Virus record (IMG/VR): IMGVR_UViG_3300030104_005963
Source: a virus
DNA length: 64,000 nucleotides
Reading direction: 5' to 3' (one strand)
In this document: one piece after another, positions 12,867 to 41,964 of the stretch
How positions within the stretch are numbered: position 1 is the first letter of the stretch
Layout of the letters: the number at the start of each line of letters is the position of its first letter
Position numbers and translations under genes: made by a program
Notes under the pieces: model-generated
What the model was told of the DNA's origin: nothing
Seen by the model: the letters and a program-made list of their open reading frames with translations, nothing else
Databases searched by the model: none

Positions 12867-13222
12867 TGGCAAATCAATTGGGTGATGCACCCGTTCGTAA
12901 AAAAGATGAAGAAATGGAACAATCAAATACAGATAGTGGAGCAGTTAATCCTTTAAAATATGGTTGTGAAATTATTCTAGAAAAAACAACAATGGAAAAA
13001 GTAAAGGATAAATCTTTTCCTACTGATGCTAGAATTGTAAGGTATGTTGAAAATGGTGTGGAACATATAGATCTTACCAGAGGTAAGAAAATGGTAAACA
13101 TTTTTGATATGTACTATGATAGATACGGAAAAAATTCCGTAAAGGCAATCGACTTTGGATATGGTTCAGTCAATCCAAAGATGTGGGGTTACAAGTCACC
13201 CGAAAAGAAAAAGCGGAAGTGA
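12866..13222 (+). CDS. Hypothetical protein
   Basis: ATG 12866 overlaps the upstream TAA (TAATG), suggesting translational coupling. Confidence 0.7.
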   Translation: MANQLGDAPVRKKDEEMEQSNTDSGAVNPLKYGCEIILEKTTMEKVKDKSFPTDARIVRYVENGVEHIDLTRGKKMVNIFDMYYDRYGKNSVKAIDFGYGSVNPKMWGYKSPEKKKRK

Positions 13223-13489: not shown

Positions 13490-13518
13490 TTGACTATATA
13501 ATAGAGAGGGTTTATAAT
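13490..13518 (+). promoter_or_regulatory. Sigma70-type promoter
   Basis: TTGACT (13490)-17 nt-TATAAT (13513). The predicted +1 (about 13525) coincides with the first base of the aptamer-like RNA. Confidence 0.8.
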
Positions 13519-13524
13519 AGACCC

Positions 13525-13756
13525 ATCGTTCATCCCATTATGTGGGACGCAAGTAAGTCGTGGAACGGATCGTTCATCCCATGTTAATAGAAGTACTTCT
13601 ATCTACAGCACTTACATGTCAAGAATCCGATACTTTATTGTTGAGGATTGAAAAACATGAAAACTTACCAGAAATGGTAAAGAATGAACTGGTTGAAACT
13701 GTAAAGGACTCAACTAATTCTAAGTGTATATGGGACGCAAACGACTAAAGGAACGG
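13525..13756 (+). ncRNA. Glutamine-riboswitch-like (glnA/Downstream-peptide family) double aptamer
   Basis: Two units of CGUUCAUCCC...UGGGACGCAA...GGAACGG with P1 CGUUC/GAACG and P2 UCCCA/UGGGA. An AAGUAAG...AAAG E-loop-like segment and complementary AGUCG/CGACU are present. It lies directly upstream of a DUF4278-like gene. Confidence 0.7.
13581..13748 (+). CDS. 55-aa ORF nested inside the riboswitch-like structure
   Basis: ATG 13581 to TAA 13748: MLIEVLLSTALTCQESDTLLLRIEKHENLPEMVKNELVETVKDSTNSKCIWDAND. The track starts it at GTG 13560. Confidence 0.55.
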   Translation: MLIEVLLSTALTCQESDTLLLRIEKHENLPEMVKNELVETVKDSTNSKCIWDAND

Positions 13757-13789
13757 ACCTAAAAATCCAATTACTTTAGGAGTAACAAA

Positions 13790-13954
13790 ATGAACACACT
13801 AAACATCATCAAAAGACAAATCGATAAGCAGGCAGCCCTGCACGATGCACAAATCAGAGTCACCAAATATCGTGGTGTCTCCTGTGAAGTGCATCAGGCA
13901 AATGAGGAAACTCACGGCACTTTCTGCTACCGTGGTCGTACTTACACCAAATGA
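13790..13954 (+). CDS. DUF4278-like small protein (not in ORF track)
   Basis: AGGAG Shine-Dalgarno at 13778. Translation MNTLNIIKRQIDKQAALHDAQIRVTKYRGVSCEVHQANEETHGTFCYRGRTYTK has two YRG motifs, the DUF4278 hallmark. Confidence 0.75.
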   Translation: MNTLNIIKRQIDKQAALHDAQIRVTKYRGVSCEVHQANEETHGTFCYRGRTYTK

Positions 13955-13961
13955 TTGATAT

Positions 13962-13989
13962 GAGAGGGTTAAGAACCCTCTCTTTTTTT
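13962..13989 (+). terminator. Rho-independent terminator
   Basis: GAGAGGGTT-aag-AACCCTCTC followed by T7. Confidence 0.9.
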
Positions 13990-14125: not shown

Positions 14126-14305
14126 ATGCACAATAGACTATCTCGTAATCAATTAGCAGAATGGAATCATTTTGAAAAGTTATCAAATAGGTATAATGAA
14201 GAATTAGATTTGATAAATGATTATTTTGACTGTTTAATTGAGTGTGATGACGACCAAGGAACTTGTAAAAGAATTTGTAAAAATTTGCTTAATGTGGGGG
14301 GTTGA
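14126..14305 (+). CDS. Small four-Cys protein (not in ORF track)
   Basis: GGGAG Shine-Dalgarno; MHNRLSRNQLAEWNHFEKLSNRYNEELDLINDYFDCLIECDDDQGTCKRICKNLLNVGG (59 aa). Confidence 0.7.
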   Translation: MHNRLSRNQLAEWNHFEKLSNRYNEELDLINDYFDCLIECDDDQGTCKRICKNLLNVGG

Positions 14306-14353: not shown

Positions 14354-14533
14354 ATGGAAAAGGAAAGACTCAAATTAATAGTTAAAAATTTAGAACTATT
14401 AGTTGATTCTCTCAAGGCAGAAATATTTTCTGATGAAGAAGCTTATCTTGATAAGAGAGAAAATTTTGATGATCCTCCACACTACTATGGAGATTACGAT
14501 GAACTTTATGACGATGCTGGTTACTCCGACTAA
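14354..14533 (+). CDS. Hypothetical protein (not in ORF track)
   Basis: MEKERLKLIVKNLELLVDSLKAEIFSD...YDDAGYSD (59 aa), ending 6 nt before thyX. Confidence 0.7.
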   Translation: MEKERLKLIVKNLELLVDSLKAEIFSDEEAYLDKRENFDDPPHYYGDYDELYDDAGYSD

Positions 14534-14539
14534 AAACTT

Positions 14540-15175
14540 ATGACAGTAAAACTTGTTAGTATTACTCCCGATGCGGAGAAAATGATGGCATATGTTGCTC
14601 GGGTGAGCAATCCATCAAATCAGGATAATGAAAAATATTCTGGTCTTCTAAAATACTGTATTAAGCACAATCACTGGAGTGTGTTTGAACAGAGTTACAT
14701 GACTCTAGAAATTGAAACTACAAGAGCGATTGCATCTCAAATACTGCGCCATCGTAGTTTTACATATCAAGAATTTTCACAACGATATGCAGATTCTTCA
14801 CTTTTAGGTGAAAAAATCAAACTTCCAGAATTAAGAAGACAGGATACTAAAAATCGTCAAAATAGTATTGATGACCTTGATCCATTTACCGTTCAGAATC
14901 TAGAACTGCAGATGCAGACTCTGTTTGATTCTTCCATGGCACTGTATCAGCAGATGTTGGAACGAGGAGTGGCAAAGGAATGTGCAAGAAATGTGCTTCC
15001 ACTCTGTGTAGGCACTAAAATTTACATGACCGGTTCATGTCGATCATGGATCCATTACATAAATTTGAGGTCCGCAAACGGCACTCAGAAGGAGCACATG
15101 GATGTCGCACTCGCATGTAAGGAAGTGTTCACAGAGCAGTTCCCTGCCGTTTCTGAGGCACTAGAGTGGATCTAA
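14540..15175 (+). CDS. thyX: FAD-dependent thymidylate synthase
   Basis: HNHWSVFE, QILRHRSFTYQEFSQRY, KECARNVLP and RSWIHYINLR...QKEH motifs. Confidence 0.97.
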   Translation: MTVKLVSITPDAEKMMAYVARVSNPSNQDNEKYSGLLKYCIKHNHWSVFEQSYMTLEIETTRAIASQILRHRSFTYQEFSQRYADSSLLGEKIKLPELRRQDTKNRQNSIDDLDPFTVQNLELQMQTLFDSSMALYQQMLERGVAKECARNVLPLCVGTKIYMTGSCRSWIHYINLRSANGTQKEHMDVALACKEVFTEQFPAVSEALEWI

Positions 15176-41800: not shown

Positions 41801-41873
41801 GCTTCCTTAGCAATCTGGTGAATGCAGCAAACTCATAATTTGCCTAAGGAGAGTTCGATCCTCTCAGGAAGCA
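41801..41873 (+). tRNA. tRNA-CAT (elongator Met or Ile2)
   Basis: GCTTCCT/AGGAAGC, GCAAA-CTCATAA-TTTGC and GAGAG-TTCGATC-CTCTC. The G1-C72 pair indicates it is not an initiator. Confidence 0.92.
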
Positions 41874-41879
41874 CCTAAC

Positions 41880-41964
41880 GGGACGGTGGCGGAATTGGTA
41901 GACGCACCAGACTTAAAATCTGTTGATCATTAAGATCGTGAGGGTTCAATTCCCTCTCGTCCTA
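41880..41964 (+). tRNA. tRNA-Leu(TAA)
   Basis: GGGACGG/TCGTCCT, D loop AATTGGTAGA, CCAGA-CTTAAAA-TCTGT, variable arm and GAGGG-TTCAATT-CCCTC. Confidence 0.93.

Follow-up and report, generated by a model that had tools for sequence, protein, structure and literature searches.

The window analysed here, a stretch of cyanophage DNA of 64,000 nucleotides (nt; IMG/VR record IMGVR_UViG_3300030104_005963), contains at positions 13490-13982 a single short mRNA unit. It consists of a promoter, two glutamine-riboswitch-like cores (repeats a and b), a protein gene that is nested within the hairpin of repeat b, a gene for an IF17-like (DUF4278) microprotein and a terminator. The parts of this unit were located by reading the sequence between positions 13200 and 14100 directly and are compiled in Table 1. 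The expected transcript start at about 13525-13526 lies at the edge of the first core.

An original prediction, made from the letters of the window alone, had placed a complete open reading frame (ORF) of 55 codons in the hairpin loop of the second core. Its coordinates proved exact to the base, and 234 distinct loci have this layout in common. The phages S-SM2, S-RIM2 and Syn1 share it. It was also correct that repeat a has a 5-nt loop, whereas the same stem encloses a gene-sized loop in repeat b, where the strands UCCCA and UGGGA are separated by 149 nt. The start codon AUG (13581-13583) begins with the last base of UCCCA, and the last codons, UGG GAC GCA AAC GAC UAA, overlay the 3' hairpin strand, the CGCA strand and the CUAAAG strand of helix P3, so that the predicted double use of the gene end as hairpin, aptamer core and P3 agrees with the sequence. 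The ORF table lists the nested ORF from an in-frame GTG further upstream.

A conserved gene within the hairpin of repeat b

By comparison with its relatives, the region 13581-13748 qualifies as a real conserved protein gene with a predicted product of 55 residues, two helices and two cysteines. The nested ORF was found by tblastn in 296 phage records, in 292 of them at a coverage of at least 80%, nearly all of which belong to Synechococcus or Prochlorococcus phages; the siphovirus S-SKS1 is among them. At least 410 relatives are present in IMG/VR. The frame is open in all 166 distinct nucleotide versions, and the other five frames contain stops in 161-166 of them. The gene has a length of 53-56 codons, plus four versions of 66 codons, and insertions and deletions occur in multiples of three only. 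In the interior of the gene, the proportions of synonymous (pS) and nonsynonymous (pN) differences are 0.69 and 0.29, corresponding to a ratio of nonsynonymous to synonymous change (dN/dS) of 0.20 for all versions and of 0.34 for close pairs. Third codon positions vary most throughout the interior, including the codons of the invariant ELVET motif and of both invariant cysteines. No frameshifted or interrupted inserts were found, and with a dN/dS of about 0.2-0.3 the preservation of the frame across homologues is in line with the predicted gene.

The protein matches the profile of phrog_504 over its full length (E-value 1e-18, residues 2-55 against profile positions 1-53 of 53). An AlphaFold2 model based on 20 homologues has a predicted local distance difference test score (pLDDT) of 79 and consists of a short N-terminal helix and two further helices (residues 13-25 and 31-44) that are bracketed by the two cysteines; the C-terminal sequence WDAND is of low confidence and unstructured. 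Pfam contains no match to the nested protein, a Foldseek comparison of the model with the PDB gave nothing below an E-value of 2.7, and a look-alike search in the ESM Atlas returned only unnamed viral clusters. With one peptide pattern, no host homologue was found in 185,579 species genomes; the only two hits were contigs of metagenome-assembled genomes that are apparently phage DNA.

The end of the gene obeys a second constraint. The pS of the WDAND codons is only 0.027 compared to 0.69 in the interior, which is approximately 25-fold lower, and the third positions of the last five codons are near-invariant (e.g. GAC in 163 and GCA in 165 of the 166 versions). Therefore, the sequence of the protein tail is dictated by the RNA core, and the unstructured tail of the model agrees with this. 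In one relative (L116), the nested gene stops 17 nt short of the 3' hairpin strand and has no WDAND tail, which implies that the tail is not needed by the protein.

Table 1 Features of the mRNA unit in the window (positions are those of the window)
Feature	Position	Strand	Remarks
Sigma-70-like promoter (TTGACT, 17 nt, TATAAT)	13490-13518	+	11 of 12 matches; promoter-like box also upstream in relatives
Repeat a, 5' core strand CGUUC (C1-C5, glutamine-II numbering)	13527-13531	+	Invariant except CGUUU in 3 loci
Repeat a, short hairpin UCCCA-UUAUG-UGGGA, 5-nt loop	13533-13547	+	Follows single A after CGUUC
Repeat a, CGCA ligand strand and joining strand, 3' core strand GAACG (13563-13567), G13568	13548-13568	+	Ligand contacts mapped according to PMC6698751
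Repeat b, 5' core strand CGUUC	13571-13575	+	Starts two bases past repeat a; can form a 5-bp hairpin with 3-nt loop with 13563-13567
Repeat b, long-range hairpin, 5' strand UCCCAUGU, core UCCCA (13577-13581)	13577-13584	+	Holds start codon of nested gene
Nested protein gene, 55 codons and stop UAA (13746-13748)	13581-13748	+	phrog_504; invariant C13, ELVET, C49, WDAND
Repeat b, long-range hairpin, 3' strand AUAUGGGA, core UGGGA (13731-13735)	13728-13735	+	Core includes Trp codon
Repeat b, CGCA (13736-13739) and joining strand (codons A-N-D-stop), 3' core strand GAACG (13751-13755), G13756	13736-13756	+	Third codon positions almost invariant
Helix P3, 5' strand CUAAAG	13745-13750	+	Includes stop codon 13746-13748
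Helix P3, 3' strand CUUUAG (13774-13779), overlapping Shine-Dalgarno sequence AGGAG (13778-13782) of next gene	13774-13782	+	P3 covariation, fold
Downstream microprotein gene, 54 codons, two YRG motifs, IF17-like (DUF4278), phrog_545	13790-13954	+	Match to PF14105 below cut-off; DUF4278-IF17 link from PMC6212724
Intrinsic terminator, 9-bp stem, then T run	13962-13982	+	Terminator prediction

Helices that hold start and stop codons

The covariation among the relatives indicates that the long-range hairpin closing around the nested gene is real. Ten stem variants occur in the 234 distinct loci and all of them are complementary across 153-290 nt. In a directed search, four stem bases were left free, U was excluded at the first position and it was predicted beforehand that a C in the 5' strand goes along with a G in the 3' strand. 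This search revealed 33 distinct loci with CCCC in the 5' strand, and all 33 have GGGG in the 3' strand, a double change from U-A to C-G that turns WDA into WGA. Where the stem is UUCC or UUUC, pairing is maintained by G-U pairs. At the same site, there are alternative stems with perfect complementarity over 6-8 bp each that enclose other small two-cysteine genes. The stem GAUUAUGG/CCAUAAUC encloses a different gene of 92-95 codons, which reads through the sensor core, the Shine-Dalgarno sequence and the start of the next gene, GACUAUGG/CCAUAGUC a gene of 63-65 codons, GUCUAUG/CAUAGAC one of 52 codons, and GUUUAU/AUAAAC one of 74 codons with a signal-peptide-like start. The minimum free energy (MFE) fold of 13525-13795 (ViennaRNA; -68.8 kcal/mol, z-score -3.98) contains the hairpin of repeat a, an inter-repeat hairpin, the long-range helix and P3.

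The location of the AUG within the 5' strand, as originally described, holds for the window, where AUGU pairs with AUAU, and other stem types even pair the whole AUG. However, it does not hold to this extent for most relatives with the same, commonest stem type, in which the A of the AUG alone is paired. This speaks against the model proposed below, as does the absence of a GGAG upstream of the nested AUG in several linker variants. Moreover, the five pairs of the commonest stem type never vary in an alignment of 83 sequences and are thus uninformative either way. A pairing of the 3' half of the second unit with the hairpin strand of the first one is possible in the window, since both contain UCCCA, but was rejected because the stems of most relatives differ and covary with their own partner.

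In two loci (L256 and L236), the nested protein of repeat b has 74 residues, with a signal-peptide-like N-terminus preceding the two-cysteine core. This hints that the nested family might act outside the cytoplasm and form a disulfide.

The hairpin of repeat a can also hold a gene. In 50 of 171 distinct loci (about 30%), it encloses a gene of 65-75 codons that belongs to phrog_6471, with a dN/dS of 0.16 and the other frames closed. Start and stop codon of this gene are part of one covarying helix, in which the A of the former is paired with the U of the latter, and the stem tracks the stop codon: UCUUAUG/CAUAAGA is found with UAA, UCUCAUG/CAUGAGA with UGA and UCCUAUG/CAUAGGA with UAG. Many stem sequences exist for the hairpin of repeat a, and two of its three counted pairs show compensatory changes. 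Both nested gene families have a hydrophobic N-terminus and contain a core of the form Cys-x35-Cys. They are weakly related in hhalign over the Cys-to-Cys region (probability 45%, E-value 2e-4), and their AlphaFold2 models have the same order of elements. It is likely that they are paralogous.

The stop codon of the nested gene lies within P3, which masks a portion of the ribosome-binding site of the following gene. In the 83 sequences, its middle base covaries with its partner (A-U in 45, G-C in 31 and G-U in 7 cases) and is never unpaired. The loop of P3 contains the core strand GAACGG, as in the glutamine-II fold, and since the stop codon is inside P3, a ribosome that reaches it must have opened P3 together with this core strand. 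The proposal that one RNA might control two proteins thereby becomes concrete, because the stop codon of one gene is part of a covarying helix beside the Shine-Dalgarno sequence of the next. Another masking of the Shine-Dalgarno sequence by CCUAAA/UUUAGG was rejected as a general feature, as inspection by eye revealed relatives with UGA and CUUCAG that have no such partner. The downstream 54-residue protein belongs to phrog_545 and matches PF14105 only weakly (E-value 2.9e-4, 21.6 bits at a cut-off of 25.3).

Two further observations concern this region. In 26 of 171 relatives (L002, L014, L025, L034, L035, L103 and others), the P3 loop carries an extra hairpin at the equivalent of 13757-13773, which is absent from the window and consists of GGAUCC, a 4-bp stem, a GAAA-type tetraloop and GAGAAGG. 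Its stems show compensatory changes (CUGC/GCAG, CACC/GGUG, CAUC/GAUG and CUCG/CGAG), and it possibly serves as a tetraloop module in a tertiary contact. Second, the sequence GUUCAU of both 5' core strands (13528-13533 and 13572-13577) is complementary to AUGAAC (13790-13795) at the start of the IF17-like gene, and the MFE fold uses this pairing as an outer helix. The gene start is AUGAAC in 127 and AUGAAU in 10 of 163 relatives and also encodes a conserved Met-Asn. If this pairing turned out to be true, it might constitute a simple on-switch, in which glutamine would remove the strand from the start codon.

Two glutamine-sensor-like cores and their pairing

Formally, the element is a sub-threshold relative of the glutamine riboswitches. 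At gathering thresholds, Rfam detects only two tRNAs in the whole window. With E-value reporting, repeat a matches RF01739 (glutamine riboswitch) with 31.4 bits (E-value 6e-5, cut-off 35) and RF01704 (glutamine-II) with 27.6 bits (cut-off 33). Repeat b is not reported by either model even then, because of its gene-sized insert. In the crystal structure of glutamine-II, glutamine and metal are contacted through the C1:G40 pair, the triple of G18 with G2:C39, the stacking of C19 and the long-range pair C19:G41 (PMC6698751). All of these contact nucleotides are found in both repeats and are invariant or nearly so, judging from the 83-sequence alignment and the variant tables for the 234 loci. Each repeat contains CGUUC followed by A, CGCA straight after the hairpin, and GAACGG. 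All five pairs of the 5-bp core helix are complementary, and the single variable pair covaries with the strand of the other repeat. The stem of the hairpin beside the core is variable and covarying in both repeats.

The relatives score below the Rfam thresholds as well: none of 20 related loci reaches them, with scores of 22-30 bits for their repeat a. This weighs against a functional glutamine sensor, and one could assume that the repeats no longer bind glutamine, being diverged relics or sensors of another ligand that serve as structural or translational elements only. We consider this improbable, since C1, G2, G18, C19, C39, G40 and also G41 are near-invariant in both repeats of 234 loci, the overlying synonymous sites of the nested gene hardly vary, and the downstream gene appears to be of the type that is normally controlled by this riboswitch. 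Glutamine riboswitches usually control DUF4278/IF17-like genes, whose translation they activate at a high glutamine level (PMC6212724).

The original prediction had treated the cores as two independent units. This view has to be revised, as the one free position in the core helix shows a covariation that agrees with cores that have swapped their partners. In a search that left both inter-repeat positions free, the first base of the 3' strand of repeat a and the last base of the 5' strand of repeat b were G and C in 213 and C and G in 21 of the 234 distinct loci, and never mismatched. Pairing in cis would leave C-C and G-G mismatches in both cores of these 21 loci, whereas crosswise pairing is complementary in 100% of the cases. 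On the ORF tree, the positions of these 21 loci are scattered, and four linker variants occur among them. At the outer end, three of three loci with CGUUU in the 5' strand of repeat a (L097, L141 and L297) have AAACG in the 3' strand of repeat b, about 230 nt away. The covarying inter-repeat pair corresponds to C5:G36; in the glutamine-II family, all but two core pairs are conserved, and C5:G36 is one of these exceptions (PMC6698751). For the second one, U4:A37, directed scans for variants found none, so that this pair is uninformative. In the glutamine-II crystal, the RNA forms a dimer by exchanging strands, with a core helix in every binding unit that is a hybrid, and glutamine is still bound by an RNA made of two pieces (PMC6698751). 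Since the covariation fits the crosswise arrangement and the crystal shows such an exchange, an interlocked double sensor is favoured: most likely, the 5' strand of repeat a would pair with the 3' strand of repeat b, and the 3' strand of repeat a with the 5' strand of repeat b.

There are, however, several points that speak against this topology. The inner covarying sites are only about 10 nt apart and one haplotype spread by recombination could explain many of the 21 cases, while the outer U-A change represents a single lineage of three sequences. There is also a single-repeat form with a nested gene (L023 and L024), for which only pairing in cis is possible, and the inter-repeat hairpin (-9.5 kcal/mol) and the cis helix (-8.2 kcal/mol; both for 13525-13577) are close in energy. 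The repeats might thus be independent cis aptamers, with the inter-repeat hairpin as a ligand-free alternative that competes with both cores and masks the sequence preceding the nested AUG. The majority of the loci (213 of 234) allow either topology equally, and a mismatch at the poorly conserved C5:G36 might be tolerated. Nevertheless, we regard independent cis aptamers as unlikely, as 21 distinct loci would have to hold mismatches in both helices, the double change in L097, L141 and L297 can only be explained by the outer crosswise pairing and there is not a single locus with a pair that fits cis but not crosswise pairing.

In the single-repeat loci (480-700), a first repeat is missing and an upstream gene extends right up to the CGUUC of the repeat with the nested gene. 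Three other loci (L016, L058 and L085) all have 3 additional nt in each of the two joining strands, by which repeat b gains a codon and the protein ends in WDAKDD or WDAKAD. This joint lengthening would fit a symmetric exchange of strands, but could also be due to gene conversion.

Mechanism and relation to known systems

The best explanation for the whole, to which we assign a probability of roughly 0.6, is one mRNA with a double glutamine-sensor-like leader, a nested gene, crosswise cores and a mutual exclusion of translation and folding. It follows physically that a closed helix would cover the nested AUG and that a ribosome on the nested ORF would prevent the helix from forming, and a coupling between translation and sensing, as originally suggested, would follow from this geometry. 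Folding of the sensor and translation of the nested gene would hence be mutually exclusive. The nested gene would be initiated only while the helix is open, which could be the case on nascent RNA as long as the 3' strand, located about 150 nt downstream, has yet to be transcribed, or on an unfolded sensor. A ribosome terminating at the stop codon in P3 would unzip P3 and the adjacent core strand, might transiently expose the ribosome-binding site of the IF17-like gene and thereby couple this gene to the nested one. Without ribosomes, the helix would close and bury the AUG, and the double sensor could then set the translation of the IF17-like gene according to glutamine.

One may take this further and regard the tandem glutamine sensors of cyanophages as an intramolecular domain-swapped pair whose hairpin loops are slots for a family of small two-cysteine genes, the RNA being a combined timer and nitrogen gauge because the start codon and often also the stop codon of each gene belong to the sensor. 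We put this forward only tentatively, with less than even odds. If it was true, the nested proteins would be made in a burst from nascent or unfolded RNA, terminating ribosomes would open the next cistron and the folded RNA without ribosomes would report glutamine to the IF17-like gene. The strand exchange in the glutamine-II crystal, regarded as a crystallisation artefact, would then be the natural state of tandem copies.

It is conceivable as well that the nested gene is a mere passenger: the loop would tolerate inserts, helix and gene would both be selected but without a regulatory link, and the sensor would work only on those mRNA copies that are free of ribosomes. Depending on the phage, this loop contains one of at least five different small genes; related phages either have or lack the gene in repeat a, and loops of 22-45 nt resemble the remnants of deletions. 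In addition, the nested genes of L256 and L116 end well before the 3' strand, and an HNH-like gene adjoins the element in L109. A passive cassette, however, needs no fixed placement of start and stop codons. All stem types have the start codon in the 5' strand, most of them with the whole codon paired, the stop codon is part of a covarying helix (P3 for the gene of the window, the hairpin itself for others), and one variant reads through aptamer, Shine-Dalgarno sequence and next start codon. A passenger therefore appears doubtful to us. Finally, although the MFE fold puts some hairpins inside the insert, it is hardly conceivable that the ORF is untranslated and the insert a structured RNA domain that is open by chance, given the third-position peak of variation, the dN/dS of 0.2-0.3, the 166 open frames with the other frames closed, the indels in multiples of three, the membership in a PHROG family and invariant cysteines and ELVET encoded by varying codons.

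Several observations were made in the vicinity of the element. In L109 (reverse strand), the IF17-like gene is replaced by a cysteine-rich ORF similar to HNH endonucleases, and approximately 300-900 nt past the junction there are a duplicated core fragment, a terminator-like hairpin and another CGUUCAUCCCA half-site after the second repeat; a mobile gene seems to have landed in this element. Downstream of the unit, the window contains two ORFs of 59 codons (14126-14305 and 14354-14533), one with four cysteines and one acidic, and S-SKS1 possesses a homolog of the acidic one at the same position. They are followed by an ORF for 211 amino acids (14540-15175) at the position where relatives annotate thymidylate synthase. 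The two tRNA genes of the window are adjacent to each other (41801-41964; 52.5 and 55.1 bits in Rfam), and the second one has a long variable arm.

Glutamine riboswitches in cyanophages and their tandem copies have already been mentioned in the literature. The publications on them that we consulted, which cover the key papers on these families incompletely, contain neither a gene inside an aptamer hairpin nor a strand-swapped tandem, and the nested gene is not described in PMC2864571, PMC6212724, PMC6698751, PMC7357161, PMC9004378, PMC9964418, PMC12379486 and PMC10690425.

The element shares with glutamine-II (RF01704; Prochlorococcus, PDB 6QN3, PMC6698751) the CGUUC/GAACG core, the CGCA third strand, the long-range C-G pair, the location of the 3' core strand in the loop of a helix by the ribosome-binding site and a small output gene, which is putatively of the DUF4278 type here. 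The hybrid core helix of the domain-swapped crystal dimer has its suggested counterpart here inside one RNA, where the covariation points to the same pairing. It differs from glutamine-II in its two, probably interlocked repeats, in its score below the Rfam threshold (27.6 against 33 bits) and in that some of its core nucleotides double as codons. Moreover, the first hairpin of glutamine-II is a tetraloop hairpin, whereas here it is a long-range helix of 5-8 bp around a 55-codon gene. With glutamine-I (glnA RNA, RF01739; leader of gifB in Synechocystis, PMC6212724), the element has in common that RF01739 is the best Rfam match for repeat a, the layout of P1 and P2 and an AAGUA-type joining strand in repeat a. 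Glutamine-I controls an IF17-type gene, which is switched on with glutamine (PMC6212724), and the downstream gene of the window is IF17-like. Tandem copies are known for the glutamine-I family as well (PMC2864571). In contrast, the long-range pair is G...C in glutamine-I but C...G here, as in type II, and the score stays under 35 bits.

Outside the riboswitches, group I and group II introns with genes in peripheral loops are comparable, since a complete ORF is located in a helix loop of a functional RNA, the helix closes across the ORF and translation competes with folding. However, these introns are self-splicing mobile elements and their ORFs encode homing endonucleases or maturases, whereas the RNA described here is a ligand-sensor-like leader with start and end of the ORF built into helix and sensor core. 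In phage MS2, the start of the maturation gene is closed by a long-distance pairing and is open only on the nascent RNA, which creates a kinetic window for translation. Here too, the start would be accessible until a distant complementary segment has been transcribed. MS2 has no ligand sensor, though, and its closing partner is located upstream in the leader and not at the end of the same gene. The tandem glycine riboswitch consists of two similar aptamers in one leader that are in contact and act as one unit; it docks by tertiary contacts without an exchange of core strands, however, and holds no gene.

Riboswitch aptamers are treated as compact non-coding modules ahead of the genes they control, but here complete genes are located inside the aptamer. 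Some nucleotides of the putative ligand-binding core also serve as codons, so that a single transcript of about 450 nt would link folding and sensing to the synthesis of up to three microproteins. The large loop inserts and the sub-threshold cores explain why scans with covariance models miss such elements. The element might represent a natural example of an aptamer whose folding is gated by translation, and possibly of strand-swapped tandem aptamers, and it points to the widespread phage genes phrog_504, phrog_6471 and phrog_545 as candidates for being wired to the nitrogen status of the host during infection of marine Synechococcus and Prochlorococcus.

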